Shown here: positions 9,078-62,577 of the stretch, in pieces
Layout: every line of letters starts with the position of its first letter
Numbering within the stretch: the first letter of the stretch is position 1
Origin: Verrucomicrobiia bacterium
Lineage (GTDB): Bacteria > Zixibacteria > MSB-5A5 > DSPP01
DNA: 64,000 nucleotides
Assembly (NCBI GenBank): GCA_035574275.1
Contig: DATLYY010000007.1
Location: forward strand, 4,928 to 68,927
Direction: 5' to 3'
The notes under the pieces: model-generated
What the model was told of the DNA's origin: nothing
The model's database searches: none
Seen by the model: only the letters and a program-made list of their open reading frames with translations
Program-made: the position numbers and the translations under genes

Positions 9078-9123
9078 CGGTTTCGCCCCCTCCTATGTTA
9101 ATTCGGCAAAACCCGGATTTTAT

Positions 9124-9585: not shown

Positions 9586-9593
9586 CTGCGCTC

Positions 9594-9759
9594 CTAAAAT
9601 TTTTCCGCCTCTTCCACCAGCATGATCGGGATCCCCTCCTCGATTTTGTATTTCAGCCGGCAGGCAAAGCAGGTCAGCCGTTCATTTTCTTCATCGTATT
9701 CGAGATTCCCCTTGCAGGCCGGGCAGGCCAGAATTTCCAGAAGCTTTTTGTCCAGCACC
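9594..9759 (-). CDS. Trm112/UPF0434-family small zinc-ribbon protein (not in the ORF track, <60 aa)
   Basis: Reverse-strand translation V-LDKKLLEILACPACKGNLEYDEENERLTCFACRLKYKIEEGIPIMLVEEAEKF* has CPxCK...C..C spacing diagnostic of Trm112/YcaR. GTG start. Lies between accA and ptsN. Confidence 0.7.
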
Positions 9760-48048: not shown

Positions 48049-48073
48049 TGTGATTGCCTCCATTCCTTTTCAA

Positions 48074-48958
48074 TTAGAGAAGGTTCAAATTGCGCAAATG
48101 TACTTCGGAAGTCAGCGTCCGCAGGCGGAAACCGCCGTCGGACGGCCAGTTTGGATCCCGTTTTTGGGTGCGGCTCTGCACCAGAATCTGCACATTCTGG
48201 ATATCGCGGGCGTCCCGGCCGGCGGCCACAAAATCGGTCACCGTGTCAGGTGTTGCGCCACCCAGGATGTAGACGAACTGCAAATCGACGATGTCTTCGG
48301 CATAGATCTGGGGGGCCTGGCCGTTACGCACCTTCATCAGTTTGGGATGGGCGGGGTCGGTGGTGTTATCGATGTAGTATTTGGCTTCTTCCATCACCAG
48401 AACAAAGTCTCCCGGTTTCGGTTCCCCCTGCAAAACTTCGGCATGGTGGATTTCCTGCCAGCCGTTGCCGGGATTGTAGGAAGTGTTGGTCAAGGTAAAC
48501 CATTCCCCGGAAGGTTCGCCGGGTGAAGGGTTGAGGTGGACCAGGTAAACCTGCTGCCCGATGAAGGGGGTAAAACAGTTCACCGTGTCCCGCGTGTGGA
48601 TGGGGCGGGACTGTTGAATTTGAGTATGGTCGCCGACCGTGATGATGCAGCCGGTTTTGTTGTACCGGACGAGAATGGTATCCGGGTTGGCATCCACCGC
48701 GACCACCGGAGCAAAACCGGCGGGGATTTCCGCCCCGGCCGCCATGATGTTCGTGGTTAGCTCATCCAGCGCAATGCGGCTATTTTGCTGGGCGTTGGCG
48801 ATTTCTTCCTGCACGGAATAAACCTGATGCTCCCGGCCGTAGAATTGAAAGGCGGCCAGGCTTATGATGGACAGCAAGATGGCGGAGACTAAAAGTTCCA
48901 CCAGGGTGAAACCGCATGATTTTCGGATTCTTGCGAGCACTTGAATTCTCTTTTTCAT
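48074..48958 (-). CDS. type IV pilin-like protein (PilW-like minor pilin)
   Basis: Class III signal peptide 'KSCGFTLVELLVSAILLSIISLAAF' (G/FTLxE prepilin peptidase motif). About 295 aa, typical PilW size. Start at 48958 preceded by AAGGAG. Confidence 0.7.
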   Translation of the reverse strand: MKKRIQVLARIRKSCGFTLVELLVSAILLSIISLAAFQFYGREHQVYSVQEEIANAQQNSRIALDELTTNIMAAGAEIPAGFAPVVAVDANPDTILVRYNKTGCIITVGDHTQIQQSRPIHTRDTVNCFTPFIGQQVYLVHLNPSPGEPSGEWFTLTNTSYNPGNGWQEIHHAEVLQGEPKPGDFVLVMEEAKYYIDNTTDPAHPKLMKVRNGQAPQIYAEDIVDLQFVYILGGATPDTVTDFVAAGRDARDIQNVQILVQSRTQKRDPNWPSDGGFRLRTLTSEVHLRNLNLL

Positions 48959-49155
48959 ATTCGCTCCTTCGTCTTTCACGGTTTCGCAAGGGGTGTGCCC
49001 GTTATTTTGGTAAAATTCCCCAAGGGGGACAAGGACTTACCTGGGCGCAAGTTTGGGGGGGTGTTTTTTAATATGGGAACTTTCCCATAGCCTTCCCGTT
49101 GTAGGCGCGCAAGTCAGCTCCAATCATAAATGCGGGGGAAGGGCAGCAGTCGCTG

Positions 49156-49257: not shown

Positions 49258-51597
49258 ATGTCGAACTTGTTTAGAAAACTGGCCGGCTGCACCCTTTTGG
49301 CCGTTTTTGTGCTGGCCCCGGCCGTCGTTTTCGCCGGTGAAGGGAATGTGGTTTTGCCGCCGTTTGACCGCTCGGTGAATATCGCTTTGTATCTGGTCTT
49401 GTTTTCGGCCGTGGTGGCGCTGGCCTACGGTGCCTACCTCATCCGCAAGGTTATGGCGCAGGAGGAAGGTACGGCCAAAATGATAGAGGTCGCCCGGGCC
49501 GTGCAGGAAGGGGCCAAGGCGTATTTGACCCAGCAGATGAGGGTACTGGCGGGCTTCATCGTTCTTCTATCCATCATCATTTTCCTGGTCTATTCCAACG
49601 TTTATAAAATGGAGGATGGTGCCACCAATTGGAAGTTGGTTTGGGGCATTGCCGTCGCCTTCTTTCTCGGTTCCTGTCTTTCGGCGGCCACCGGCATCAT
49701 CGGAATGTCGGTTGCCGTGCGCGGGAACGTCCGCACGGCCAACGCCGCCCGCACCTCTTTCAAAAAGGCCTTGGAAGTGGCCTTCGAAGCCGGCACGGTG
49801 ACCGGAATGTTCACGGTCGGAATGGGGCTTTTGGGAGCCACCATCATCTTTATGATTTTCAAAGAGCATGCCATGCAGGTTTTAATCGGCTTCGGCTTCG
49901 GCGGCTCCTTGGTCGCTTTGTTCATGCGTGTCGGCGGTGGGATTTACACCAAGGCCGCGGATGTGGGCGCTGACCTCGTAGGCAAAGTGGAAGCCGGCAT
50001 TCCAGAAGATGACCCGCGCAACGCTGCCACCATCGCCGACAACGTGGGGGACAACGTGGGGGACTGCGCCGGGATGGCTGCCGATTTGTTCGAGTCATAC
50101 GAAGTGACACTTGTCGCCGCCATGATTTTAGGGGCCGCATTTGTTCAGTACGACCCGGATTTGGCTTTGAAAATGATTCTTTTCCCGCTTTTGGTGCGTG
50201 CTGTTGGCGTTTTCGCCTCCATTTTTGGCGCAATGTCGGTACGCGGGCAGGATCGGGATGATTTCAACCCGATGCGCCCGATTCAAAATGGTTTTGTGGT
50301 CGCCGCCATCATTTCCACCATCGGCTTCGGATTGGTGAATTACTTTTACATCCAGGGCCCGCCGGGATTTTTCTGGGCCACCTTCTCCGGAATTTTGCTG
50401 GCCGTGATAATCAGTTACCTGACCGAATACTATACCGCTTTGGAATACTCCCCGGTCAAAGAGACCGCCAAGGCGACCCGCACCGGGCCCGCCACCACCA
50501 TCCTTTCCGGCTTTGCGGAGGGGCTGGAATCCACTTCCGTGGCGGTTTTGGTCATCGCCGTCACCGTGGTCACATCATTTTTGATATTTCGGAATTTCTC
50601 CGCCGATGCGGGGGCCAATCTGGCGATGGCCGCCTACGGCATCGCCTTGGCAGGGATGGGGATGCTGACCACCACCGGTATCATCGTCTCGATGGATACC
50701 TACGGGCCGATTTCGGACAACGCCAACGGTATTTTTGAAATGTCCAAGGTTCTGGAGGAGGACAAAAACCCAAAGGCGCACGCCATCGTTCACAAACTGG
50801 ATGCCGTCGGCAACACCACCAAGGCAGTGACCAAGGGATTCGCCATCGCTTCGGCCGTCGTGGCCGCCGTGGCCCTTTTCCGCTCCTTCACCTCCGACGT
50901 GGATTTGCTGGACCCGGCCTTGAATTTCCCGGCGCTTGGCATTCAGGTGAATCTGCCCTTCGTTTTTGTCGGTCTTTTGATCGGCGGGGCGATGCCATTT
51001 CTTTTCTCCTCGATTGCCATCCGCGCCGTCGGCCGGGCCGCTTTCCTGGTGGTGGAAGAAGTGCGCCGCCAGTTCCGCGAGATACCGGGTATTATGAAAG
51101 GGACGGCAAAGCCGGAATACGGCAAGGTGGTCGCCATCACCACCGCCGCCGCCCAAAAAGAGCTTTTGGGGCCGGGGCTTTTGGCAATTTTGTCCCCCAT
51201 CATCGTCGGTTTCTATCTCGGCGTGGAAGGCCTGGGCGGCTTTCTGGCCGGCATCATTTTGACCGGTCAGCTCTTGGCCGTTCTTCTGTCCAACGCCGGC
51301 GGAACCTGGGACAACGCCAAAAAACTGGTGGAACAGGGGATGTACGGCGGCAAGGGTTCGGAAGCGCACAAAGCCGGCATCATTGGCGACACGGTGGGGG
51401 ATCCGTTCAAGGACACCGCCGGGCCTTCGCTCAACCCGCTCATCAAGGTGATGAACTTAGTGGCGCTTTTGATTCTGCCCTTAATCGTCGGCCCAAGCAA
51501 ACTTTCCAACGCGCTCGCCGTCGGCTCCGCCTCGGTGGCCTTGGTCGTTCTGATTATTTTCCTTATCCGCTCCAAGCGGGCCGCGCAGACGGATTGA
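49258..51597 (+). CDS. hppA: membrane-bound proton- or sodium-translocating pyrophosphatase
   Basis: 779 aa, 15-16 TM segments. Hallmark 'GGIYTKAADVGADLVGKVE' and 'DNVGDNVGDCAGM' motifs. Confidence 0.92.
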   Translation: MSNLFRKLAGCTLLAVFVLAPAVVFAGEGNVVLPPFDRSVNIALYLVLFSAVVALAYGAYLIRKVMAQEEGTAKMIEVARAVQEGAKAYLTQQMRVLAGFIVLLSIIIFLVYSNVYKMEDGATNWKLVWGIAVAFFLGSCLSAATGIIGMSVAVRGNVRTANAARTSFKKALEVAFEAGTVTGMFTVGMGLLGATIIFMIFKEHAMQVLIGFGFGGSLVALFMRVGGGIYTKAADVGADLVGKVEAGIPEDDPRNAATIADNVGDNVGDCAGMAADLFESYEVTLVAAMILGAAFVQYDPDLALKMILFPLLVRAVGVFASIFGAMSVRGQDRDDFNPMRPIQNGFVVAAIISTIGFGLVNYFYIQGPPGFFWATFSGILLAVIISYLTEYYTALEYSPVKETAKATRTGPATTILSGFAEGLESTSVAVLVIAVTVVTSFLIFRNFSADAGANLAMAAYGIALAGMGMLTTTGIIVSMDTYGPISDNANGIFEMSKVLEEDKNPKAHAIVHKLDAVGNTTKAVTKGFAIASAVVAAVALFRSFTSDVDLLDPALNFPALGIQVNLPFVFVGLLIGGAMPFLFSSIAIRAVGRAAFLVVEEVRRQFREIPGIMKGTAKPEYGKVVAITTAAAQKELLGPGLLAILSPIIVGFYLGVEGLGGFLAGIILTGQLLAVLLSNAGGTWDNAKKLVEQGMYGGKGSEAHKAGIIGDTVGDPFKDTAGPSLNPLIKVMNLVALLILPLIVGPSKLSNALAVGSASVALVVLIIFLIRSKRAAQTD

Positions 51598-51616
51598 AAC
51601 TCTTTTGCCTTACTTG

Positions 51617-51648
51617 AGGGGCGCGGCTCTCCGCGCCCCTTGTTTTTT
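51617..51648 (+). terminator. rho-independent terminator of hppA
   Basis: AGGGGCGCGG-CTCT-CCGCGCCCCT 10-bp stem followed by TGTTTTTTG. Confidence 0.75.
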
Positions 51649-51652
51649 GCCT

Positions 51653-51698
51653 CAACTGTCAACTTTTGGACACCAAGTGTCAACTTTTTTGCATTGAC
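51653..51698. repeat. 46-nt direct repeat, copy 1 (contains TGTCAA-N4-TGGACA and TGTCAA-N10-TTGAC)
   Basis: 43/46 identical to 54930-54975. Sits immediately after the hppA terminator and about 250 nt upstream of the Cys-rich lipoprotein gene. Confidence 0.8.
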
Positions 51699-51948
51699 GG
51701 GCGTTTGGTTTTCCTCTCATTTTATTCCCGTATGCTATGGCAGGAGCGTAACTGGGGTAGAGATTTTTGGGGAAATAGCCGCATCATAAACCGCAACCTC
51801 ACCCGGCTTGGCAACCGGGGGAGATCTCTTCCAGCCTCCGTTCGTGTGAAAGGAGGTAGTTTATAACCTAAAACAATCCATTTTGAGTGTAAGTGAACAG
51901 CATTTTGTTGGACCGAACTTGACCCGTTTCTTGGAAAGGAGCAGGTTT

Positions 51949-52806
51949 ATGCTATCCAGATTCCGCTTGACACAAACTTTCAAAGGGCTTACTCTTTTTG
52001 TGCTTATGTCCTTTATTTTATCCGTTTGGGCAGGATGTTCGGATACTAAAATCACGGGTACAGATGTGCCGTTAGTCAGCTCAGCACCGGAATTTTTAGG
52101 GAAAGTTGATACGGCCGGGTGCGAACAATGTTCCGCCAAAAAAGAAGTGGATAGTGGTACACCAAACAAGATCGGATTGTTTCTTGCAACCGATCGTGGC
52201 GACGATGGAACAGAGTCGGAGCCCGCGCCGCCATATTTGGTGACCGATGGACCGGAGCTCCAACTTTTGGTGGGGATGGCCAATGGCAACCCCACGGTAG
52301 CCGCCGCAAAGGCATATTTGATTGCCGGCGGGTTCTATTATGCTCCTTCAGTCGCAATAGGGGTAAGAGATCATTACGGTGGAAATGAAATCGTCTATCT
52401 GCCATTTGGTGTGTTTTCCGACCCCAATACAGCTGCTTATCTCATTTATGCCAATTCACAAGGCCAAAGCGCTTCCGCCGTTGGTTATGTAAAAGCCACC
52501 AATACTTATCCAGGAAATGGGTACGAATACTGGACCACCTTCCAGACGGATGATGGTTCGTATAAACAAGTATGGGTTAAGACAGTAAGCCTGACTCCCA
52601 TTGGAGGTAACACAGTTGTAACCGATTGCAACGCTCGATACTGGAAGTGTTTTTTGGGTGGAGCGCTGTTAGGTTGCCGCGGAGCTACGCTTCGGTGTCT
52701 GATAATGGGGCCGGCTACGCTGGTTTGTGCTGCCACAGGTTGCGCATTCGCTATGATTCCCGCTGCGTTGGGTTGCGGTGTTCGTACCGCTCAAGGATGC
52801 CAATAA
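51949..52806 (+). CDS. secreted (lipo)protein with a Cys/Gly-rich hydrophobic C-terminal region; no recognisable family
   Basis: Start at MLSRFRLTQ... preceded by AAGGAG. Signal peptide ending VWAGC. Last about 60 aa contain 10 Cys within hydrophobic/Gly context (CNARYWKCFLGGALLGCRGATLRCLIMGPATLVCAATGCAFAMIPAALGCGVRTAQGCQ). Local GC is lower than the rest of the window. Confidence 0.6.
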   Translation: MLSRFRLTQTFKGLTLFVLMSFILSVWAGCSDTKITGTDVPLVSSAPEFLGKVDTAGCEQCSAKKEVDSGTPNKIGLFLATDRGDDGTESEPAPPYLVTDGPELQLLVGMANGNPTVAAAKAYLIAGGFYYAPSVAIGVRDHYGGNEIVYLPFGVFSDPNTAAYLIYANSQGQSASAVGYVKATNTYPGNGYEYWTTFQTDDGSYKQVWVKTVSLTPIGGNTVVTDCNARYWKCFLGGALLGCRGATLRCLIMGPATLVCAATGCAFAMIPAALGCGVRTAQGCQ

Positions 52807-52845
52807 TAAACGGAATGGTGTAACTTCGGAAAAAGGAGGAAAAAG

Positions 52846-53067
52846 GTGAGCAATTCTAATTCCAATTTCAGAAATGGAAGGCAACTGCTTATTTCGCTCA
52901 TTGTGGCTATTATTGTGGGTGTTCTCTGGGGTTGGTTAACCACGATTAAGGCACTCGACGAGTGGTGGCGGTACTTCACGTTTGGCCTCCTTATTTCCGA
53001 GATTTATCATTACGGCTACTGGATTCCCAAACTCAAAGCCGAAGGGAAGCTTATCATTAAGAAATAA
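52846..53067 (+). CDS. small two-TM membrane protein (73 aa)
   Basis: GTG start after AAAGGAGG. Two hydrophobic helices (LLISLIVAIIVGVLWGWL; YFTFGLLISEIYHYGYWI). Followed by a terminator. Confidence 0.5.
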   Translation: MSNSNSNFRNGRQLLISLIVAIIVGVLWGWLTTIKALDEWWRYFTFGLLISEIYHYGYWIPKLKAEGKLIIKK

Positions 53068-53083
53068 ATTTTCGTTCCGTTGC

Positions 53084-53115
53084 AAGGCCGCTTCATTGAA
53101 GCGGCCTTTTTATTT
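53084..53115 (+). terminator. rho-independent terminator after the small membrane protein gene
   Basis: AAGGCCGCTTC-ATT-GAAGCGGCCTT stem followed by TTTTATTT. Confidence 0.7.
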
Positions 53116-53148
53116 CCTAAACTCACAATCGCCTTCCTAAAAAAGCAC

Positions 53149-53176
53149 TTGACAAGCTCCTAAAGCACCTTATATA
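53149..53176 (+). promoter_or_regulatory. near-consensus sigma70-type promoter (TTGACA-16 nt-TATATA)
   Basis: TTGACA at 53149-53154 and TATATA at 53171-53176. Upstream of the small secreted ORF and the TPR-HTH regulator. Confidence 0.5.
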
Positions 53177-53225
53177 TTTTTTCCGATATTAAAAGTAGAG
53201 CCATAGACCGAAAGGAGTGGTGATT

Positions 53226-53513
53226 GTGCGTCCGCTGGCCTTTAAATTTTTAACCCTTGCGTTAACCATGTTCCTGCTCCTTTCGTTTTCCCTTTCCGCT
53301 TTCGCCTTGCCCCTCCGCTATTGGCTGGCCACTCGGGATGTGGATGAACAACCGTACCCGGCGGCTTCCCGCAATGCGACCTATTTTGTGGTTCTGAAGA
53401 CGACGTACGGAATTGTGTTAATACCGGTTTTTGTAAAATCGGGCAAAATCTCAAACGCCATTACCCCGGAAAAGTCGGGTTTTTCATCAGGGAAAAATGA
53501 AATCCTCGACTAA
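53226..53513 (+). CDS. small secreted protein (about 95 aa), hypothetical
   Basis: GTG start 8 nt after AAAGGAG. N-terminal signal peptide (FKFLTLALTMFLLLSFSLSAFA). Overlaps the start of the downstream regulator by 17 nt. Confidence 0.4.
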   Translation: MRPLAFKFLTLALTMFLLLSFSLSAFALPLRYWLATRDVDEQPYPAASRNATYFVVLKTTYGIVLIPVFVKSGKISNAITPEKSGFSSGKNEILD

Positions 53514-54927
53514 ACGGCTCTCCGTACTGTCCGAAAAGCTTAGAAAGACCAATTCCCTGGTCAAAACGAACAAGTTTCAGGAAGCGCTTGCGGAATTAAA
53601 TTCCTTGTCGGATGCTTTTGACGCAACGGATTTCTCCGAAGAGCGGGCCCAATTTAATTATTTGCGCGGACTTGTCCTCTGGCGGTTGGGAGAAAAAAAG
53701 CAGGCCTTGGAGCCAGCTCGAAACGCTTTGAAGTCCTATTTATTTCTGAAGAGTTTCGTGGGAGTAGCCAAATCGCAAAGTTTGCTTGGGTATGTTCTTA
53801 TCGATTTAGGCAATTTAGAGGATGCGGAAGAGCATTTGCAATTGGCGGTTTCCAGTTTTAAGCTGGCGAACGATTGGTCGCAGGCCGCCAGGGCTTTGAA
53901 CCGCATCGCTTACCTGTACAGCATTCGTGGAAAGCTGGACTTTGCAAACTATTTCAATGACCAAGCCCGAACCTGCGCCGTTAGGGCCAACGACCGGTAC
54001 TATGAGCAGTTGTTAGGGTGCAGTCGCGCCGTTCATTGCCGGTTGGCCGGGGATTGGAAATCCGCCCTTGAAAAGTTGGATGATTTTTTGAATCAAAGCA
54101 AAAAGGCCGCGGACTACTTCAGCCATGTTTTCGGATTGATTAACGCGGGTCATGCCAAATTTCTTGGCAATCTTTTGAAACAAGCGCGGGATCATTATTT
54201 GGAAGCCATCCGGGTCGCAAGCCGAGAGAATTTGATAGGCAGTTTGAAAGTCGCCTACGAATTTTTAGCCGAGCTGGATATTGCCGAAGGGCGGTATGCC
54301 GAGGCGGAGGAGAACCTCAAAAAGGCGCTGGAAATCGGCGAGCGAGTCTCCCCGTACGGCACCATTATGACCCAGTGCTGGCGCTTGATGGGGGATTTGC
54401 GGCTGGCCCAAAAAGAATACGATCGGGCCATGGAGGCCTACGCCACTTGCCGGAGCTACTTGATTAAACTGCCCGAGAAACTCGAAGAAGGTGCGATGTA
54501 TCGCGGGATGGGTATCTGCCACATCCGCAAAGACCAGTTCTCGCTGGCGCAGGCGGCATTCAAAAAAGCGATTGAAATTTTCGAGGCGTGCGAAAACGAT
54601 TGGGAGCTGGCAAAAACCTACGTGGAAGCGGCCGAGTGCGGGGCATTTGCTCTGGCCGAACTCCGCTCCAAGCTCGCCTGGGCCAAGGGGATTTTCCATG
54701 AACTGGAACACCCTTCTTGGGAGAAAAGAGTGGAGGTGCTTTTGGGGCATTCTGAACCCTCCTCGAACGGAATCCCGTTACGCTTGGCCCACGAAATGGC
54801 CGACCGCCAAAGAGTCACCCAGGCCCTTTTCGAAACCGGAGGAAACATCTCCCACGCGGCCGAAAAGCTGGGGATTTCCCGCCCGGCCCTGCACTACAAA
54901 ATCAAACGCTACAAATTGGCGGTATAG
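53497..54927 (+). CDS. TPR-repeat transcriptional regulator with C-terminal Fis-type HTH (HTH_8)
   Basis: 476 aa. Multiple TPR-like helical repeats. C-terminal 'RQRVTQALFETGGNISHAAEKLGISRPALHYKIKRYKL' is a canonical Fis/NtrC-type HTH. No AAA+ domain. Confidence 0.75.
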   Translation: MKSSTKRLSVLSEKLRKTNSLVKTNKFQEALAELNSLSDAFDATDFSEERAQFNYLRGLVLWRLGEKKQALEPARNALKSYLFLKSFVGVAKSQSLLGYVLIDLGNLEDAEEHLQLAVSSFKLANDWSQAARALNRIAYLYSIRGKLDFANYFNDQARTCAVRANDRYYEQLLGCSRAVHCRLAGDWKSALEKLDDFLNQSKKAADYFSHVFGLINAGHAKFLGNLLKQARDHYLEAIRVASRENLIGSLKVAYEFLAELDIAEGRYAEAEENLKKALEIGERVSPYGTIMTQCWRLMGDLRLAQKEYDRAMEAYATCRSYLIKLPEKLEEGAMYRGMGICHIRKDQFSLAQAAFKKAIEIFEACENDWELAKTYVEAAECGAFALAELRSKLAWAKGIFHELEHPSWEKRVEVLLGHSEPSSNGIPLRLAHEMADRQRVTQALFETGGNISHAAEKLGISRPALHYKIKRYKLAV

Positions 54928-54929
54928 CC

Positions 54930-54975
54930 CAACTGTCAACTTTTTGACACCAAGTGTCAACTTTTTTACGTTGAC
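54930..54975. repeat. 46-nt direct repeat, copy 2 (contains palindrome TGTCAA-N4-TTGACA and TGTCAA-N10-TTGAC)
   Basis: 43/46 identical to 51653-51698. Begins 3 nt after the regulator stop codon, about 310 nt upstream of the Yip1 gene. Confidence 0.8.
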
Positions 54976-55287
54976 CCCCTTTTATATTCCCTTTCATATT
55001 ACCACCGGTTTTGGAAGCGCGTCCCTGAAATGGGACTTCGGGGGAATGCCCATTTGCCCCACGCCTCCTCCGGCAGAGCCGCTCCACCCTTTTTCGGGGA
55101 GATTGCCGGGGGAGGCATTTTTTAGTTCCCATCAAAACGATGCCCGGCGGGTAAGCGGCCTTGCCGTTGTCTGTTTGCCCTCCAACCCCTATTCCAAGAC
55201 CCCCTCTCAATCGTTATATTAAAATTTGTGACGGTAGTCAGTTTTTGCAACCTCACGGAAAAAACGGCGTATGAGAAAATGACGTAG

Positions 55288-56034
55288 ATGGGAGGAACGA
55301 TGGAACAAGCGATGGCGGCCCCGGCGGCCATGCAGCCGGGCGGCGATTTGGGTTTTTTGGCCCGCTGGGCCAATATCTATTTTTCGCCCAAGAAGGTCTT
55401 TGAGGCGGTGAAAGCCCGCCCTTATTGGGTGGTACCGATGGTTCTTCTCGTGCTTCTGGGAACCGGATTCTATTTCTGGACCTCCGGGGCGCGGATGAAC
55501 GACACGTTAGAGAAGATGCGCAAAAACGAAAATATCATGGCGATGCCGGCCGAACAGCGCCAGGAAATTTTCGACCGGGTGGAAAGCCAGTTCAAAAGCC
55601 CGCTGTGGGGTTCCGTGGGGGTTCTTTTCGGAATCGCCTACTTTTTCATCGCTGCCGGAATTTTGTTTTTCGTCGGCAACATTATAATGGGAGGGGAAGC
55701 CCGCTTCGCCCAGGTTTTGGGGGCCTTCGTGTACACCGGGTTTATCGGCGTCCCGGAAATGCTGGTGCAGGGGCTTTTGGCCGCAGCCAAGGGAAGTTTG
55801 AACACGGCTTTGTCGTTGGCTGCCTTTTTCCCGCCCGACCAATCGGAAACTTTCGTCTATCGGTTGATCAACGGCTTCGACATTTTTTCCATCTGGTTCA
55901 TCTCGGTTTTGATTATCGGCCTGGCCACGGTTTACAATTTCAAAGCCGGCAAGGTGGCGGCTTGGATTCTGCCGCTCTGGGTTCTTTGGAAGGTGATTGC
56001 CGCGGCCTTGGCCGGTCTGGGCATGGGTTTTTAA
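55288..56034 (+). CDS. Yip1-domain integral membrane protein
   Basis: 248 aa. Soluble N-terminus then 5 TM segments with Yip1-family spacing. Alternative start at MEQAMAAP (55300). Confidence 0.65.
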   Translation: MGGTMEQAMAAPAAMQPGGDLGFLARWANIYFSPKKVFEAVKARPYWVVPMVLLVLLGTGFYFWTSGARMNDTLEKMRKNENIMAMPAEQRQEIFDRVESQFKSPLWGSVGVLFGIAYFFIAAGILFFVGNIIMGGEARFAQVLGAFVYTGFIGVPEMLVQGLLAAAKGSLNTALSLAAFFPPDQSETFVYRLINGFDIFSIWFISVLIIGLATVYNFKAGKVAAWILPLWVLWKVIAAALAGLGMGF

Positions 56035-56047
56035 ATTTGGAGGAAGG

Positions 56048-57364
56048 ATGAAGAGAATAGTACTCATTAGTTTTTGTCTTGTCTTTGGGGCGGTCGCCGC
56101 TTGGGCGCAGGTCAAGCCGCTGACCTTGAACGACGCCCTTTCGACCGCTTTGGAGAAAAACTTCGGCTACCGCATTGCCGAGGGAAACTGGGAAGTGGCG
56201 AAAGCGGAAAAAACGGGTGCCGCGGGAGGGCTTTTGCCCTTTGTCTCCGTCGGTTTGTCCTACGGCTGGACCAAGCGGGGCCCTTCCTCCTCCTTTACGC
56301 AGGGTCTCATAGTCGTTCCCGGTTCGAATCAGACCACCACCACGGCCAACTACAGTTTGGGGCTGGAGATCCGCCAGGATTTGTTCGACGGAGGGGCTTC
56401 CTTCTCCGGTTACAAAGCCGCTTCGGCTTCGGAAGCCGCCGCGCGCGAGGGTTTTCGCGGCGCCCGGCAGCAGCTTGTTTTCGACGTCCGGAATTCCTAC
56501 TATTCGGCTCTCAAAGCCAAATTGCTTTTGGAAGTCCAAAAAGACGTAGTAAAAAGGGGGGAGGAGCAGTTGAAAATCGCCCAGGCCCGCTACGATTTGG
56601 GCTCGGCCTCCCTATCCGACGTTTTGAAAGCGAGGGTTTCCTACGCCAACGACCAGCTGGCCTTGATTTCGGCCGAGAACAGCTATCAGGTTTCGCTGGC
56701 CAATCTGAACTCCATCATCGGCGAAAACGTCAATGATTCCATTGAACTGGCCGATACATTGGTGCCTCCGTCCGAGTTGAATTTGGGTTTTGAAGAGGCC
56801 CTGCTAAAGGCCGAAAAAAATCATCCCGACTTATTGGCTGCCCAGGAAAATATGAAGGCGGCCGACTGGGGAGTGCAGGCCGGGCGGGCAGGGCTCTATC
56901 CATCCTTATCCTTGAACGCCGGCTACGGCTGGAACAACCGGGATTTTTCCCGTGTCACCTCCCTTTTTGACCGGGATTACCAGTGGCGGTTTGGGTTTTC
57001 CATCGGCTACAACATTTTTGACCGGTTTTCCACCTACCAGTCGATAAAATCCTCCCAGGCCCGGCATTCCAACGCGCGGGAAACGTACCTGCAGACCAAA
57101 AGCCGGGTGGCGCTCGAAGTCAAGCAAGCGTTTCTGGATATGGCTCAGGCCAAACAGAAGCTGGAGGTGACCAACCAGCAATCGGAATCGGCGGAGGAGG
57201 ATTTGAACATCGTGCAGGAAAAATACAATCTTGGAGCGGCCACCATTCTGGAACTCTTGGATGCCCAGGTGAGCTACAAGCAGGCCAAGTCGGACCAGGT
57301 GCAGGCGCTCTTCGACTACAACCTGGCGGCGGCGCGGCTTAAAAAATCAATCGGCGAGGAGTGA
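56048..57364 (+). CDS. tolC: TolC-family outer-membrane efflux channel
   Basis: Start at MKRIVLISF (signal peptide) preceded by GGAGGAAGG. Two OEP repeats, 'LTLNDALSTALEKN' N-terminus, coiled-coil periodicity. Confidence 0.85.
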   Translation: MKRIVLISFCLVFGAVAAWAQVKPLTLNDALSTALEKNFGYRIAEGNWEVAKAEKTGAAGGLLPFVSVGLSYGWTKRGPSSSFTQGLIVVPGSNQTTTTANYSLGLEIRQDLFDGGASFSGYKAASASEAAAREGFRGARQQLVFDVRNSYYSALKAKLLLEVQKDVVKRGEEQLKIAQARYDLGSASLSDVLKARVSYANDQLALISAENSYQVSLANLNSIIGENVNDSIELADTLVPPSELNLGFEEALLKAEKNHPDLLAAQENMKAADWGVQAGRAGLYPSLSLNAGYGWNNRDFSRVTSLFDRDYQWRFGFSIGYNIFDRFSTYQSIKSSQARHSNARETYLQTKSRVALEVKQAFLDMAQAKQKLEVTNQQSESAEEDLNIVQEKYNLGAATILELLDAQVSYKQAKSDQVQALFDYNLAAARLKKSIGEE

Positions 57365-58614
57365 AAATGAAAACCAAGACAAAAATCTTCATCGGCATAG
57401 GCGCGGGGCTTGTCATTCTGGCCTTGGTGCTGGTCAACCTCAAGCGCTCCTCCTCTTCGGAGATAAAAGTGGAGGCGGAAAAACTGAAGCGGACCGACAT
57501 CGTCTCCATCGTTACCGCCAACGGCAAAATCAAGCCGCGAACCGACGTCAAAATTTCGGCCAACATTTCGGCCCAGATTATTGAACTTCCGGTGGAGGAG
57601 GGGGATCGGATCCATCGCGGCCAGCTTTTGGTCCGGCTGGACCCCGGCCGCTATCGGGCCGCCGTGGACCAGGCCAAGGCCCAGTTAAAGCTGGAAAAGG
57701 CGAATCTGGATCAAGCCGAGCAGAATTTTAACCGGATCAAACCGCTCTTTGAAAAAAACCTGGCTTCCCAGGAGCAGTACGACCAATCCGCCACCCAGCT
57801 TTCAGTAGTCCGGGCCCGCCACGAGGCGGCCCAGCACAACTTGGAGCAGGCGGAGGATGATTTGTCCAAGACCATAATCAATTCCCCCATCGACGGCATC
57901 GTCTCCGAGCTTAGGGCCGAAAAAGGAGAAACGGTGATTCCAGGCACGATGAACAATCCCGGCACGGTGATCATGACCGTGTCCGATTTGTCGGCCATTG
58001 AGGTGGAGGTGGATGTGGATGAAACCGACATCGCATTGGTGAAAGTGGACCAGACCGCGGAAGTTTCCGTGGACGCCTTCCGGGACACCACCTTCAGGGG
58101 CCGGGTCATAGAAGTGGGAAGCGCCGCCTTGGCTCCCGGCGCCGGTTTGGGACAGGAACAGGTGACCAACTTCCGGGTCAAAATCCTGCTTTTGGACAAA
58201 GTCGCCGGCATCAAGCCGGGAATGACCGCCACCGCCGATATCGTCACCGCCGAAAGGAAAAACGTCCTTGCTGTTCCCATTCAGGCCGTGGTGCTGCGGG
58301 ATTCGTCCGCTTTGGTAAAAGCCAAGGAGAAAGACAAAAAAGACAGCGGGGCATTCGCCTCCACACCGGCTTCCGCCCCGGCTTCAACCGCGGCTCCAAA
58401 AAAGAAAAAAGAGCTGGAAGGGGTATTCGTTATCCGGGACGGCAAGGCGGTTTTCGTCCCGGTCGTCGTGGGAATCGCCGACCAGACCAACATCGAAGTG
58501 CTATCCGGCTTGCAGGAGGGGGATATGATTATCACCGGCAGCTACAAAACCCTCCGGACGCTGGAGAACGAAGCGAAAGTAAAGACGGAGGAGAAGGGAA
58601 AGAAGGCCTCCTGA
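57361..58614 (+). CDS. macA: efflux adaptor (HlyD/MacA-family periplasmic membrane-fusion protein)
   Basis: 417 aa. N-terminal TM anchor, biotinyl-lipoyl-like and coiled-coil hairpin, beta-barrel and MP domains. Confidence 0.85.
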
Positions 58615-59300
58615 TGTTAATCCATATTCGCAATCTCTGGAAAACGTACGATATGGGGCAGGCCGTTCAGGTGCAGGCCCTGCGGGGGGTGGACTTGGAC
58701 ATCGAACGGGGGGAATACATCGCCATTATGGGCCCTTCCGGTTCGGGAAAGTCGACACTGATGAATCTAATCGGCTGTCTGGACACTCCCTCGGAAGGAA
58801 CCTACGAGCTGAACGGCCGGATGGTCTCCCAGCTTTCGGATGACGAGCTGGCCTTCATCCGGAACAAGGAGATCGGCTTCGTCTTTCAGACCTTCAACTT
58901 GCTGGCCCGGGCGACGGCCTTGCACAACGTCGAACTTCCCCTGATTTACAACGGCACTCCGGCCGGGGAGCGGAAGAAAAAAGCGCAGCAGGCCCTGGCG
59001 GCGGTCGATTTAACCGACCGGGCGCATCACAAGCCGAACGAACTCTCCGGCGGGCAGCGGCAAAGAGTAGCCATCGCCCGCGCGCTGGTGAACAGCCCTT
59101 CGATTATCCTGGCAGACGAGCCGACCGGGAATTTGGACTCCGCCACCGGGGCAGAGATTATGCAGCTTTTCGACCGGCTTCACAAACAAGGGAACACCAT
59201 CATTTTGGTCACCCACGAGCACGACATCGCCGCCTATGCCGAGCGGAGCGTGCATCTGCGGGACGGCAAAATTGAAAAGGACGAACGCCGGGCGGCGTAA
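58614..59300 (+). CDS. ABC transporter ATP-binding protein (MacB/LolD-type)
   Basis: 228 aa. Walker A 'GPSGSGKST', signature '[15 protein letters not shown]', Walker B '[11 protein letters not shown]'. Confidence 0.9.
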
Positions 59301-59312
59301 GGGTATTGCGAC

Positions 59313-60569
59313 ATGGGAAAACTGAAAACGCCGATTTGGGAAAGCGTTAAAATCTCGCTTACCTCCCTGCGGGCGAATAAGCTCCGCTCTATTTTGACCT
59401 TAGTCGGTGTCATCATCGGCGTCACCTCGATTATAACCATGGTCTCTTTGATTTCCGGTTTCAACAAGCTGGTGGCCGACCAGTTGGCGACTTTGGGCTC
59501 CACGACCTTTATCGTAGAAAAATTCGGCATCATTTTGTCCGACGACGACTGGTTCGACGCCATGAAACGCAAGGATTTGACCTTGGCTGACTACCAGGCG
59601 GTGGTAGCCGGCTGCACGGAATGCGAGGAGGTTGCGCTGCAAAAAGTTTCCAACCGCAAGGTCAAATACGGGCGGGAGCATTTTTCCCGTGTCCCGATTG
59701 TCGGCATCACCCCAAATTACATGAAAGTGGTGGCGCTGGACGACATCGTGGACAAGGGGCAGGGGCGGGTGATCACCGAGTTCGAAAACGACCACCGCCG
59801 GCAGGTGGTGATTTTGGGGCCGGAGCTGACCGACAAATTTTTCCCGATGCTCGACCCGATCGGCAAAAAAGTCAGAATCGGCGACGCCGACTTCACCGTG
59901 GTGGGAGTGCCCAAAAAGCGGGGTTCTTTTCTGGGAGACAACCAGGACCGTTTCGCCGCCATCCCCTTCAGCGTTTATCAAAAATATTTTTCCAACAAGC
60001 TGGAACCCTGGGAAGGGCTTCAGTTTTACATCAAGGCCAGGGATTATCCTTCGATGGAAAAAGCCCAGGATCAGGTGCGGGCCATTCTGCGCGCCCGCCG
60101 TCACGTTCCCTACCACGCCAAGGATGATTTCGGCATGTACACGGCGGAAACCTTGATGGATCTGTTCAAACAGGTGACCACCGGGATTTCCTTCACGCTG
60201 GTAGGCATCGTTTCCATTTCCCTTCTGGTCGGCGGCATCGTGATTATGAACATCATGCTGGTTTCCGTCACCGAGCGGACCCGCGAAGTCGGCGTCCGCA
60301 AGGCCCTCGGCGCCCGCCGCCGCTCGATTTTGTTGCAATTTTTGATTGAATCGGTCACCCTCGCGGTGGTGGGCGGCACAATTGGGATTTTTCTGGGGGT
60401 TTTATTGGCCAAAGTGATTTCCTGGACCACCCCGATACCGGCCGCCATCGAGCCCTGGTCGATAATCGCCGGGCTTTTGGTTTCCACCGGCGTGGGGGTT
60501 TTCTTTGGCGTTTTCCCGGCCGCCAAGGCGGCCCGGCTGGATCCCATCGAGGCGTTGCGTTATGAATAA
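59313..60569 (+). CDS. ABC transporter permease, FtsX/MacB-type (periplasmic domain + 4 TM)
   Basis: 418 aa. MacB_PCD-like periplasmic region between TM1 and TM2. C-terminal FtsX domain. Confidence 0.85.
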   Translation: MGKLKTPIWESVKISLTSLRANKLRSILTLVGVIIGVTSIITMVSLISGFNKLVADQLATLGSTTFIVEKFGIILSDDDWFDAMKRKDLTLADYQAVVAGCTECEEVALQKVSNRKVKYGREHFSRVPIVGITPNYMKVVALDDIVDKGQGRVITEFENDHRRQVVILGPELTDKFFPMLDPIGKKVRIGDADFTVVGVPKKRGSFLGDNQDRFAAIPFSVYQKYFSNKLEPWEGLQFYIKARDYPSMEKAQDQVRAILRARRHVPYHAKDDFGMYTAETLMDLFKQVTTGISFTLVGIVSISLLVGGIVIMNIMLVSVTERTREVGVRKALGARRRSILLQFLIESVTLAVVGGTIGIFLGVLLAKVISWTTPIPAAIEPWSIIAGLLVSTGVGVFFGVFPAAKAARLDPIEALRYE

Positions 60570-61812
60570 ATTCCGCTGGGCGGAGATGCGGGAGGGGATG
60601 GCTCTGGCCTTCGACAGTTTGCGCGCCCACAAAATGCGCTCCTTTTTAACCATGCTCGGAGTTTTCATCGGCGTACTTTCGGTCATCGCCATGGCTTCCA
60701 TCATCGAGGGGCTGAACCGTTCGGTCTCCGACCAGATTCAAAACCTTGGCTCCAATGTTATCTTCGTCACCCGGTTCAAAATTGGTTTTCAATTCGGCGA
60801 CCGTTCGGAAGAGGAGCGGCTGCGCAAGCCGATCACCTTCGAAACCGGCGAGGCAATCAAGGAGTTCTGCCCGGCCGTGGACGCCGTTTCCCCGCAAAAC
60901 TACGTTTTCGTGGACGGCGGCAACGTCGCCAAATACAAGGGAAACACCTTCAAGCGTCCCTCCCTTTTCGGCACCCTGCCGGACTACGAGCGTGTGAACA
61001 ATCACTATGTGGAGCAGGGGCGTTTCATCACCGATATCGACCACCATTTCAAGGCGATGGTCTGCGTCATCGGCGCCGACGTAGCCGAAGCGCTTTTTCC
61101 CAAAATCGAGCCGATCGGCAAGGAGATTTTGGTGAACAACCACAAGTACCGGGTGGTGGGGGTGATGGAGCACCGCAAATCCAATCTGGGGCGAAACTCC
61201 AACAACATCATCGTGCTTCCTTACGGCACCTTCGCCCGGCTGCATCCCTGGGAAAAGGAGCTTCTACTTGTAGTGCGCAGCCGCTCGCTGGAAGAACAGC
61301 AGTTGGCGATGGATCAAATTGAATCCGCCCTGCGCCGCCAGCGGGGGGTTCCCTACAACAAGCCGAACGATTTCGAGCTGGCCACCCAGGAGCAGTTGTT
61401 GGAATCCTTCCGCTCCGTCACGATGGGAATTTTCTTTTTGATGATAGGCATTTCCGGCATTGGGCTTTTGGTCGGCGGCGTCGGCGTGATGAACATCATG
61501 CTCGTTTCGGTCAAGGAGCGCACGCGGGAAATCGGCATCCGCAAGGCGATCGGCGCCAAGCGCAGAAACATCCTCTGGCAGTTTTTGATTGAGGCCGTCA
61601 CCCTTTCCTGCTCCGGCGGCATAGCCGGAATCCTCATCGGCACGGGCATCGCCCTTTTAATCGGTGCCACCACGCCCTTGCCGGCGGCCGTCTCGCCGGT
61701 CTGGGTTTTCATCGGCTTCACCGTATCCGTTTCGGTTGGGCTGGTCTTCGGCATCTACCCCGCCTATCAGGCCGCCAAACTGGACCCAATAGTTGCCTTG
61801 CGGTACGAATAG
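60562..61812 (+). CDS. second ABC transporter permease, FtsX/MacB-type (LolC/LolE-like pair with the upstream gene)
   Basis: Start at MNKFRW (60562) overlaps the upstream stop. Same architecture as the preceding gene, about 35% identical by eye. Confidence 0.85.
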   Translation: MNKFRWAEMREGMALAFDSLRAHKMRSFLTMLGVFIGVLSVIAMASIIEGLNRSVSDQIQNLGSNVIFVTRFKIGFQFGDRSEEERLRKPITFETGEAIKEFCPAVDAVSPQNYVFVDGGNVAKYKGNTFKRPSLFGTLPDYERVNNHYVEQGRFITDIDHHFKAMVCVIGADVAEALFPKIEPIGKEILVNNHKYRVVGVMEHRKSNLGRNSNNIIVLPYGTFARLHPWEKELLLVVRSRSLEEQQLAMDQIESALRRQRGVPYNKPNDFELATQEQLLESFRSVTMGIFFLMIGISGIGLLVGGVGVMNIMLVSVKERTREIGIRKAIGAKRRNILWQFLIEAVTLSCSGGIAGILIGTGIALLIGATTPLPAAVSPVWVFIGFTVSVSVGLVFGIYPAYQAAKLDPIVALRYE

Positions 61813-62577
61813 CTACCGCTTCTTCGCCTTATTCCACAACCTGTCCAATTCCTCCAACTCCATTTCCCCCAAATTCTTCTTTTGCTTTTTTAAACTTGCT
61901 TCGATAAAGGCAAACCGCTTCTCAAATTTCTCCACCGAGATCTTCAACGCCTTTTCGGGGTTAACTTTTAAATGCCGTGAGAGATTTATTGCTGTGAAAA
62001 ACAAATCCCCGATTTCCTCCTCCAATTTTCCCGACTTTTTCTTCAAATCCTTTTCAATTTCCTTTATTTCCTCTTTCAACTTCGGAACCACTTGATTCGC
62101 TTTTTTCCAGTCGAAACCAAACTGCGCCGCTTTTTCCTGTACCCTTTGCGCGCGGAATAAAATCGGCAGGGTTTTTGGTATCGATTCAAGAACGCCCGTT
62201 TCCTTCTCCTTTAACTTTCTTTTTTCCCAGTTTTCCAGCACCTGTGCCGGGGTCAGTTTTTCCTTTTTCCCGAAAACATGCGGATGGCGGCGTATCAGCT
62301 TGTCGGAGATTCCTTTGGCCACCTTCTCAATGTCAAAACGCTTTTTTTCTTTGGCCAACTGGGCGTGGAAAACCACCTGTAAAAGCAAATCTCCCAATTC
62401 CTCTTCCAGTTTCTTGTAATCCTTTTCATAAATCGCCTCAATCGCCTCGTGCGCCTCCTCCACCAAATAGGGGACGAGCGTCTCATGGTTCTGTTTCTTG
62501 TCCCAAGGACATCCCTTCGGCCCCCTTAGCGTGGCCATAATCTGTATCAGCCGCTCCATTTCCGACTTTTTCTTCAT
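61813..62577 (-). CDS. mazG: nucleoside triphosphate pyrophosphohydrolase MazG
   Basis: 254 aa. Tandem MazG domains ('EEAHEAIEAIYE...ELGDLLLQVVFHAQLA' and 'EEIGDLFFTAINLSRHLK'). Confidence 0.88.
   Translation of the reverse strand: MKKKSEMERLIQIMATLRGPKGCPWDKKQNHETLVPYLVEEAHEAIEAIYEKDYKKLEEELGDLLLQVVFHAQLAKEKKRFDIEKVAKGISDKLIRRHPHVFGKKEKLTPAQVLENWEKRKLKEKETGVLESIPKTLPILFRAQRVQEKAAQFGFDWKKANQVVPKLKEEIKEIEKDLKKKSGKLEEEIGDLFFTAINLSRHLKVNPEKALKISVEKFEKRFAFIEASLKKQKKNLGEMELEELDRLWNKAKKR

Follow-up and report, generated by a model that had tools for sequence, protein, structure and literature searches.

A Paired Palindromic Element in a Verrucomicrobial hppA-Yip1 Locus as a Probable Operator-Promoter of a TPR-HTH_8 Regulator

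Proteins of the HTH_8 family, named for their helix-turn-helix (HTH), include NifA, for which the bound upstream activating sequence (UAS) has the form TGT-N10-ACA (PMC2820453), and VpsR, which acts with sigma-70 RNA polymerase (PMC6158489). Receptors built of tetratricopeptide repeats (TPRs) are described from the RRNPP gene pairs of peptide quorum sensing, for which a five-point signature has been given: a propeptide of 10–100 amino acids, a secretion signal, a receptor of 250–500 amino acids, TPRs, and adjacency of the two genes (PMC10075063). In Bacillus subtilis, the transporter YknWXYZ protects against SDP, a disulfide-containing hydrophobic peptide toxin that is cut from a secreted precursor (PMC4887032). 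The system analyzed here combines these known kinds, namely a regulon of one transcription factor and its operators, a relative of the bacterial enhancer-binding proteins (EBPs) without AAA+ domain, a pump of the MacB type and a pair of genes resembling those of RRNPP systems. It lies in a 64,000-nt stretch of contig DATLYY010000007.1 (positions 4,928 to 68,927; assembly GCA_035574275.1) from the metagenome-assembled genome of a Verrucomicrobiia bacterium with locus tag VNL73_01625, a stretch which we refer to as the window, between hppA and an export operon that starts with a Yip1 gene. Its central feature is a 46-nt element, E, present in two copies around four genes that encode a Cys-rich lipoprotein, a small membrane protein, a small partner protein and a TPR-HTH_8 regulator. 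We propose that E is probably a composite operator-promoter read by the TPR-HTH_8 protein encoded between its copies.

Element E and its copies

The two copies, E1 (51,653..51,698, plus strand) and E2 (54,930..54,975, plus strand), are direct repeats identical at 43 of 46 positions, as the preliminary description had reported, and they are the only ones in the window: a degenerate 46-mer matched E1 and E2 alone, none of 100 dinucleotide-preserving shuffles contained a match, and a position weight matrix (PWM) built from 10 copies revealed no third copy in the 64 kb, even a weak, low-scoring one. Each copy consists of two 21-nt units, CAAsTGTCAACTTTTnnACA, and each unit holds a 16-bp palindrome-like site, TGTCAA-N4-TTGACA, which is of the TGT-N10-ACA form and whose dyad size fits an HTH dimer. 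Site 1 of E1 (TGTCAACTTTTGGACA, 51,657–51,672, plus strand) has one mismatch in its half-sites, while those of E2 site 1 (TGTCAACTTTTTGACA, 54,934–54,949, plus strand) are perfect. The promoter-proximal site 2 (51,678–51,693 in E1 and 54,955–54,970 in E2, both on the plus strand) abuts a TTGAC (51,694–51,698 and 54,971–54,975) resembling a −35 hexamer, which is followed by an 18-nt spacer and a weak −10, CAT(A/T)TT; the likeness of E1 and E2 runs on into this promoter-like TTGAC-N18-CAT(T/A)TT, to a total of 72 nt (82%). The promoter-like sequence at E2, P_E2 (54,971..55,000, plus strand), reads TTGACC-18-CATATT. Its counterpart at E1, the putative sigma-70-type promoter P_E1 (51,694..51,723, plus strand), consists of TTGACG, an 18-nt spacer and the weak −10 CATTTT; since it falls below the threshold of our consensus scan, it was assigned by homology to P_E2, the register being aligned in all copies. 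An intrinsic terminator of hppA with a 12-bp GC-rich stem and a T-run (51,615..51,650, plus strand) separates that gene from E1.

The element recurs in a comparison set of nine loci (the window and eight related loci, all from metagenome assemblies), which together hold 13 copies of E. All 13 are oriented along the gene strand, and each heads a transcription unit whose first gene lies 66–417 nt downstream, the units being the Yip1 operon, the lipoprotein gene and an operon starting with a DUF2784 gene, and the register TTGAC-N18-CAtaTT is fixed. The centers of the two sites are 21 bp apart, that is, two helical turns, in every copy and also in the divergent elements E′ and E″ described below, and in six loci E begins exactly 3 nt past the stop codon of the orthologous TPR-HTH_8 regulator, as E2 does in the window. 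The TGT-N10-ACA form is fitted by site 1 in 12 of the 13 copies and by site 2 in four.

Comparison of core and flanks distinguishes the copies by descent. Across loci the core is identical at 36–46 of 46 positions, while the flanks of non-orthologous copies agree at background level; between E1 and E2, the 43/46 identity of the core falls to 18/60 downstream and 6/30 upstream. E1 is orthologous to the copies that head the lipoprotein gene in two relatives (L004:11434 and L006:10959), and E1 with its leader matches the L004 copy (L004b) at 51 of 60 nt, while E2 with its leader matches the Yip1-proximal copies at 47–51 of 60. Because each copy's leader has its own ortholog and only the core is common to both, E1 and E2 appear to be old paralogous sites kept alike by selection rather than recent scars.

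Being short, intergenic, partly palindromic and present in more than one copy, E shares the general appearance of repetitive extragenic palindromes (REPs), their composite BIME forms and miniature inverted-repeat transposable elements (MITEs). Unlike those repeats, it is restricted to one kind of locus, always has the same orientation and promoter position, and covaries with a regulator. Even at a low PWM score there are two copies in 64 kb, and the pattern matches once in the 171.8-kb contig of a close relative (L024). The 241 million records of the JGI metagenome collection yielded two true matches, 185,579 species genomes (a representative collection without this lineage) gave none in Verrucomicrobia and 17 chance singletons in unrelated taxa, and viral contigs gave no matches. 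E is thus locus-specific in the material searched, and it is hardly conceivable that it is a generic REP- or MITE-like repeat. This lineage does have a separate, truly dispersed REP-like hairpin (CCTCCCCTTCCCGTTTCGGGAAGGGGA..GGTTAGG), which is absent from the 64-kb window and occupies unrelated intergenic spots in relatives, including the spacer behind the Yip1 leader (L002 9484–9510, 11633–11668 and 18351–18394; L004 13141–13215; L025 681–722; L028 2652–2679 and 9371–9416).

The regulator and its probable operators

The gene between the copies that ends just before E2 (53,497..54,927, plus strand) encodes a 476-residue protein with about ten TPR-like repeats (residues 4–417), a linker and a Fis-type HTH (428–472), and lacks an AAA+ domain. 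Profile matches are to HTH_8 (PF02954, E 1.4e-12, residues 433–472) and TPR_12 (E 2.6e-24), and none to Sigma54_activat; the AlphaFold2 (AF2) model (pLDDT 89) likewise predicts TPR helices in about ten repeats up to residue 417, followed by a flexible linker and a three-helix HTH. About 28 homologs were found at 41–83% identity, all from Verrucomicrobiae/Limisphaerales bins or metagenomes, and the distant homologs are TPR-AAA+-HTH_8 enhancer-binding proteins (P0030–P0032). PDB sequence searches with the regulator returned nothing; its closest structural match is domain III of MalT, not an RRNPP receptor. Among the orthologs associated with E, the HTH is 85–95% identical in most (75% in P0006), and the TPR part 65–80%.

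The evidence that connects this protein with E comes from three clades. In the clade of the window, the pair of TGTCAA-N4-TTGACA sites, 21 bp apart and followed by TTGAC, goes with the recognition helix SRPALHYKIKRY. In L026, the paralog P0028 (41–44% identity), which has the helix LRQTLQYKIKHY, is accompanied by E′, in which TGCAAAAAATTTTGCA and TGCAAGTTTTTTTGCG (TGCAA..TTGCA) lie 21 bp apart and are followed by TTGCC, 8 nt past the stop codon of P0028. In L030, where the regulator P0024 (47% identity) has the helix PRTTLCSILKRI, the element E″ is made of TGACGAAAAGTCGTCA and TGACGAAATTTCGTCA (TGACGA..TCGTCA), again 21 bp apart and followed by TTGCTT, and stands 5′ of a homologous lipoprotein gene and its leader. 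Three half-site types thus pair with three recognition helices, while the design of 16-bp sites, 21-bp spacing and adjoining −35 is constant. We read E as the operator-promoter of the regulator because the two divergent clades keep the design of E but differ in half-sites and recognition helices, and the suggestion of the preliminary description that the repeats might be operator sites is strongly supported by this covariation and by the promoter position of all 13 copies in nine loci.

An unbiased scan for any 16-bp palindrome repeated 21 bp downstream recovered E-type elements in the window, L026, L030, L004 and L006, together with one chance match in a coding region of L004; E1, with its weaker half-site, was missed, and nothing was returned from L002, whose E has a degenerate site 1. 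Covariation within the window's own clade, between SRGALHYR regulators and TGTCCA..AAACA sites in L002 and L004, was considered and is only suggestive, the same L004 regulator also facing canonical sites.

Another protein might read E, or none: E could be a promoter duplicated together with UP-like or −35-proximal sequence, or a target of some other, global protein, with the TPR-HTH_8 protein not its binder. The TTGACA-like half-sites do resemble −35 hexamers, the spacers are T-rich like UP elements, one locus (L025) has E with no regulator gene adjacent to it, and binding of the regulator to E is predicted from sequence comparison. On this account, however, one would have to explain why the half-sites change in step with the neighboring recognition helix while the 16-bp/21-bp/−35 architecture is kept, why E is restricted to this locus type, and why it stands 3 nt past the regulator gene in six genomes. 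We therefore consider such a duplicated promoter or foreign target improbable.

With respect to the EBPs of the NifA/NtrC family, the regulator and its sites are similar in the C-terminal Fis-type HTH_8 and in the TGT-N10-ACA dyads, which are often paired (PMC2820453), and the nearest multi-domain homologs of the regulator are TPR-AAA+-HTH_8 proteins (P0030–P0032 and a 941-residue protein of L026). In contrast to these EBPs, the regulator is without the AAA+ domain that interacts with sigma-54, and whereas the UAS of NifA or NtrC lies at least 100 bp upstream of a −24/−12 promoter, the E sites abut a sigma-70-like −35. Functionally, the regulator would be nearer to relatives acting with sigma-70, such as VpsR (PMC6158489). 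Inspection for a sigma-54 promoter 3′ of E located GG-N10-GC only in the lipoprotein leader of L004, and not in the window, in L006 or in the Yip1-class leader, and such a promoter was rejected. The L026 protein, a TPR, sigma-54 AAA+ and HTH_8 EBP of 941 residues, is encoded at 6538–9673 (minus strand), adjoining the paralogous TPR-HTH_8 regulator, and its gene is preceded by one for a 97-residue protein whose N-terminal segment is hydrophobic and which bears a DEYPW motif. Because this AAA+ protein also has a small partner upstream, the pairing of a small partner with a TPR regulator may predate the loss of the AAA+ domain.

Taken together, we hypothesize that E is present twice because two transcription units at the locus share one transcription factor. 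Two dimers of the regulator would occupy the same face of the DNA, at about −44 and −65, and switch on suboptimal sigma-70-type promoters (18-nt spacer, CATATT or CATTTT); activation seems likelier than repression. The TPR superhelix would be the signal-sensing part, and the translationally coupled small exported or membrane protein either the signal source or the membrane tether of the regulator. E1 would drive the genes of the Cys-rich lipoprotein and the small membrane protein, E2 a leader RNA that carries a terminator and, when transcription continues past it, the YknW-OEP-MFP-ABC-MacB2 exporter, while the partner-regulator pair would run from its own promoter, which has no E. One sensor-regulator might in this way co-induce a Cys-rich protein that is secreted or anchored, the small protein of the membrane, and a pump of the peptide type for export or protection, and in some genomes it may also induce an operon for a DUF2784 protein, a beta-rich protein and a redoxin.

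Several points weigh against this proposal. Support for E as an operator is comparative throughout, and the covariation is based on three clades only. Site 2 is degenerate in most copies, and the −10 of P_E1 is too weak for a consensus scan. L025 retains E without a regulator gene beside it. No operator was found in the 91 nt past the regulator gene of L030, and the rule that an operator follows the stop codon is therefore not universal; none was found in the 3.5 kb of L029 examined. Finally, every sequence is from a metagenome assembly, and the representative-genome collection scanned for E lacks this lineage.

Gene order and base composition of the interval

Five architectures occur between hppA and Yip1, and each variable unit begins with E. 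One, in L002, L003 and L028, is hppA – partner – regulator – E – leader – Yip1 operon, with a single E. The window has hppA – E – lipoprotein – 73-residue protein – partner – regulator – E – leader – Yip1 operon. In L004, the order is hppA – E – DUF2784 operon – partner – regulator – E – lipoprotein – E – Yip1 operon, and in L006 it is E – (DUF2784) operon with redoxin – partner – regulator – E – lipoprotein – 127-residue protein – E – Yip1 operon. L024 shows regulator – E – leader, and L025, a 2.1-kb contig, hppA – E – leader – Yip1, with none of the other genes in between. Relatives show synteny for the partner-regulator pair as well as for the hppA and Yip1 operons on either side, and L002, L003 and L028 keep partner and regulator with one E and are without the lipoprotein cassette only. 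On gene order, partner and regulator are conserved core genes, and the unit of lipoprotein and small transmembrane protein (about 51.65–53.12 kb) is the only variable cassette. This cassette, made up of E, leader, lipoprotein gene, transmembrane protein gene and terminator, sits in different E-headed slots across genomes: in the window and L030 it precedes the regulator pair, and in L004 and L006 it follows it. Farther 5′, PilX_N/DUF4900-type and pseudopilin-like genes upstream of hppA (46,366–48,979, minus strand) are syntenic with L002, L003 and L004 and help to anchor the orthology of the region. The DUF2784 operon is a further E-headed operon that is absent from the window (L004 6766–9598, L006 6184–9085); it encodes a DUF2784 membrane protein, a small signal-anchored protein, a protein of 384–412 residues without Pfam match and a thioredoxin-like Redoxin (truncated in L004), which fits a thiol/disulfide theme.

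These comparisons bear on the original view of the interval as a horizontally acquired 3.3-kb islet with no recognizable orthologous context, in which the 46-nt repeats would be insertion or recombination scars (att-like sites or target duplications). The drop in GC content on which this view drew is real: the interval 51,653–54,975 has a GC fraction of 0.492, the lowest of 607 sliding windows of equal length, although the flanks are at about 0.55–0.58, and the 64-kb mean at 0.556, rather than near 60%. The deficit sits in the lipoprotein gene, the gene of the 73-residue protein and intergenic DNA (51,699–53,216, 0.470), and the GC fraction at third codon positions (GC3) is low in the lipoprotein gene (0.444, z −3.3) and ordinary in the regulator gene (0.629, z −0.7). 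Repeats that flank the interval exactly, and L025 with one repeat copy and none of the genes between hppA and Yip1, could also be cited for an insertion. Yet L002, L003, L028 and L004 keep regulator and partner in synteny and have just a single E on their downstream side, which means that E2 exists without E1; E2 stands at a fixed 3 nt from the stop codon in six loci, and more copies of E head other operons in L004 and L006. The likeness of the repeats continues into the promoter, while the flank of each copy has a separate ortholog, and the low GC3 of the lipoprotein-module genes recurs in their homologs in all the genomes compared. No integrase, transposase or recombinase was matched by Pfam or NCBIfam in the four enclosed genes, and E had no match in viral contigs. 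Further, L030 shows the four-gene order of the window, and the supposed islet therefore looks like an old module rather than a recent import. Horizontal acquisition of the whole interval, with the repeats as scars, is accordingly very unlikely in our judgment; what varies between hppA and Yip1 is the lipoprotein cassette, with partner and regulator conserved in L002, L003 and L028.

A role in rearrangement is compatible with E as an operator-promoter, namely that the element serves in addition as a homology patch at which recombination could delete, duplicate or move cassettes headed by E. The five architectures, with every variable unit headed by E, and the placement of the lipoprotein cassette 5′ of the regulator pair (window, L030) or 3′ of it (L004, L006) would fit, and L025 has the structure expected from recombination between two E copies that removes everything between the first and the last. 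There, in a 2.1-kb JGI metagenome contig, positions 600–1140 hold the hppA terminator, one E, the Yip1-class leader and Yip1, with the partner and regulator genes absent between; L025 may be a deletion form that occurs in nature or else the result of an assembly that collapsed across the repeats. However, a 43/46 repeat with exact runs of only about 21 nt would be poorly suited to RecA-dependent recombination, the neighborhood encodes no recombinase, the contig could be such a collapse and has an hppA-E spacer unlike that of the window, and the leaders of the cassettes are old orthologs, not recent copies. We regard this second role for E as possible, though on balance we lean against it.

Partner protein, lipoprotein cassette and exporter

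The composition of the interval as first described (a lipoprotein, a hydrophobic 73-residue protein, a small signal-bearing protein and a TPR-HTH regulator) is borne out, and the products allow some suggestions on what the regulator may sense and control. The small partner protein (95 residues; 53,226..53,513, plus strand; GTG start at 53,226 in an open reading frame (ORF) that opens at 53,217) overlaps the regulator start by 17 nt. Its operon has a strong promoter without E (53,149..53,178, plus strand; TTGACA-18-TATATT, an 11/12 match), and the same TTGACAAGC...TATATT promoter is present in L028, L029 and L030. A partner of 95–97 residues is translationally coupled to every regulator ortholog, down to 47–51% identity. 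Its N-terminal segment is signal-like, a D-x-DE-x-P-x-P motif and another hydrophobic stretch are present, and the acidic C-terminus is conserved as ..KNE[IV]x[DE], a conservation that is ambiguous because the C-terminus overlaps the start region of the regulator gene.

With a 95-residue neighbor whose n-h-c pattern, AFA motif and hydropathy suggest a secretion signal, a 476-residue receptor, TPRs and overlapping genes, the pair agrees with the five-point RRNPP signature. It resembles the RRNPP(A) pairs (Rap-Phr, NprR-NprX, PlcR-PapR, Rgg-SHP and AimR-AimP) in the adjacency of a small protein with secretion signal and a TPR receptor, and also in that the regulator is placed to control adjacent genes for a secreted protein and an exporter, a control that is predicted here. 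Unlike the RRNPP(A) pairs of Firmicutes, it belongs to a metagenome-assembled genome of a Gram-negative-type verrucomicrobium, its HTH is a C-terminal HTH_8 rather than an N-terminal XRE-type HTH, and there is no significant sequence match (Rgg_C in the regulator at E 0.011, below cut-off), the closest structure being the MalT domain. The partner is also unlike an RRNPP(A) propeptide in that another hydrophobic segment could place it in the membrane; this segment equally allows a two-pass membrane protein with a cytoplasmic tail that tethers the regulator.

The lipoprotein (285 residues; 51,949..52,806, plus strand) comprises a signal peptide, a lipobox, a disordered linker, an alpha/beta domain and a predicted C-terminal helical hairpin. 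By inspection, the lipobox reads ...FILSVWAG|C30, with FPGC, WVGC, FSGC and FVGC in relatives, and presumably fits the PROSITE-type pattern. Of the 11 Cys in the precursor, eight rather than the ten first counted lie in the tail, within the last 59 residues, and they are mirror-symmetric about G254-P255. Searches of 1.8–5.8 billion sequence clusters representing about 15 billion proteins place the protein in a family of seven members, and it is not an orphan: a word-indexed search returned only the protein itself, exhaustive HMMER added four remote relatives, and the L004 and L006 loci encode another two. A profile search with the family returned nothing new beyond P0039, PDB sequences gave no match, and Foldseek with the low-confidence model gave noise (best E 0.1). 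All seven members have a Cys-bearing signal peptide, a linker, an alpha/beta domain and a tail rich in Gly, Ala and Cys, and in all seven the distances of the Cys from the G-P turn are mirrored. For the window protein, P0037 and P0039, these are 4.5/11.5/20.5(/27.5) on one arm and 5.5/10.5/21.5(/29.5) on the other; for P0036, P0038 and the L004 member, they are 4.5/8.5/16.5/20.5 and 5.5/9.5/17.5/21.5, with the L006 member off by one residue on the N-terminal arm. The AF2 model, which has a pLDDT of 55 as a whole and 72–77 in the tail, predicts two antiparallel helices (220–253 and 257–284), and we infer a hairpin stapled by three or four predicted disulfides.

Alpha-hairpinins and twin-CX3C proteins are the nearest designs, also having two antiparallel helices with Cys facing across the hairpin (PMC11591084). 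CX3C spacing itself occurs in four of the seven members (P0036, P0038, the L004 member and the C-terminal arm of the L006 member). The tail is longer, with three to four predicted rungs in place of two, and differs from the free hairpin peptides of plants and mitochondria in being the C-terminal module of a bacterial lipoprotein of 210–290 residues. The window member also departs from CX3C families in its spacings (7/9/7 and 5/11/8), and its disulfides are predicted from the model and the Cys positions.

The gene is preceded by a leader (5′ untranslated region; 51,724..51,948, plus strand) that is 86% identical to that of L004 over 133 nt and recognizable in L006, L027 and L030, so that this leader class is conserved across clades (L004 11480–11732; L027 1–193; L030 151–403). 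It was considered as a structured RNA and shows no unusual folding stability (z +0.37). A CCUCC...GGAGG hairpin in it sequesters a Shine-Dalgarno (SD)-like sequence, GAAAGGAGG, and in L004, L006 and L027 that SD is followed by a mini-ORF of two codons (ATG GGA TAA or ATG GAA TGA), which is lost in the window. Downstream of the lipoprotein gene, the 73-residue protein (52,846..53,067, plus strand) has a single clear hydrophobic span, the second being weaker, and was thus only in part correctly described as having two transmembrane segments. A small membrane protein follows the lipoprotein gene in four of five loci (73 residues in the window; 127–128 in L006, L027 and L030, with a further 69-residue protein in L027), and the 73-residue protein is a positional analog of the others. 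Homology between it and the 127–128-residue proteins was rejected (hhalign probability 0.2), as was its identification as a holin (E 0.038, below threshold). An intrinsic terminator with an 11-bp stem and a T-run (53,084..53,116, plus strand) closes the cassette.

On the other side of the regulator gene, E2 is followed by the Yip1-class leader RNA (55,005..55,124, plus strand), with three hairpins of which the last is a 14-bp terminator stem (55,063–55,116) with a T-run. Over about 115 nt it is 92–98% identical in eight loci, whereas the neighboring regulator proteins are only 68–81% identical. Its minimum free energy is −54.2 kcal/mol (z −2.5), and an Rfam search of 51,300–55,500 at E ≤ 1 gave only sub-threshold spurious matches, none of them on either leader. 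The leader varies too little for a test of covariation; pairing is retained in the single inner stem that diverges, that of L006. The leader is a candidate for an attenuator, a small RNA or a riboswitch-like element; by inspection, pairing between an upstream segment, UCGGGGGA, and the terminator's 5′ arm is conceivable, which would fit an attenuator. A 31-codon ORF inside the leader was rejected because a 1-nt indel in orthologs breaks the frame. A second conserved non-coding block (55,181..55,287, plus strand), possibly a secondary promoter with 5′ untranslated region and ribosome-binding site, precedes the Yip1 gene; it contains TTCCAA-N17-TATATT and a GTGAC-N4-GTCAG dyad, and its spacer to the leader terminator is 0–150 nt in relatives.

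The export operon itself (55,288..61,812, plus strand) has six genes in the order YknW(Yip1)-OEP-MFP-ABC-MacB-MacB (55,288–56,034, 55,997–57,364, 57,361–58,614, 58,614–59,300, 59,313–60,569 and 60,505–61,812). Their products match Yip1 (PF04893, 2.3e-16) and YknW_fam (2.4e-20, below the NCBIfam cut-off at 72.9 vs. 110 bits), OEP (2.6e-77), RND_mfp (7.5e-56, plus Beta-barrel_YknX and YknX_C), ABC_tran (3.3e-35), and, for the two MacB-like permeases, MacB at about 1e-60 (below cut-off). Judged from these matches, the operon is a YknWXYZ/MacAB-TolC-like system and a Gram-negative counterpart of B. subtilis YknWXYZ. At its 3′ end, a MazG-family gene (61,813–62,577, minus strand) has a GC fraction of 0.454, the lowest among the long ORFs of the window; in L004, an IS200/IS605-like Y1_Tnp gene (a faint match) lies between MacB2 and MazG.

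The SDP system (sdpABC, sdpRI, yknWXYZ) shares with this locus the YknW-type Yip1 protein, the YknX/MacA-type adaptor, the ABC ATPase and the MacB/YknZ-type permeases. The layout is also SDP-like in that the pump has the same operator type as the gene of a secreted Cys-rich protein, which is followed by that of a small membrane protein. Unlike in YknWXYZ, an outer-membrane factor and a second permease are added, a Gram-negative design, and there is no homology between the lipoprotein and SdpC, the transmembrane protein and SdpI, or the regulator and SdpR. By analogy, it is a reasonable guess that lipoprotein, transmembrane protein and pump are laid out like circuits of toxin, immunity and self-protection (SDP/SdpI/YknWXYZ). 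A more far-reaching version, which we consider doubtful, would make the locus an RRNPP-like, peptide-sensing circuit outside the Firmicutes: the 95-residue protein would be exported and processed, its C-terminal peptide or membrane-held tail would be read by the TPR superhelix, and the regulator, a descendant of an EBP without AAA+ domain, would activate the E promoters of a disulfide-laddered, membrane-active lipoprotein "weapon", of the small membrane protein that confers immunity and of a self-protection pump like YknWXYZ, with E-headed cassettes exchangeable between slots. If true, RRNPP-type signaling would extend beyond Gram-positive bacteria.

For this uncultured Verrucomicrobia (Limisphaerales-like) lineage, in which almost no regulation is known, the idea of an islet gives way to a concrete regulatory circuit with a defined operator, a probable reader and two or three target operons. 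Three unannotated elements are defined along with it, namely a family of lipoproteins with a mirror-symmetric Cys ladder, the small partner of TPR-HTH_8 regulators, and a near-invariant, terminator-bearing leader RNA of 115 nt, and the three pairs of operator and recognition helix constitute a natural specificity-swap set for HTH_8 domains.

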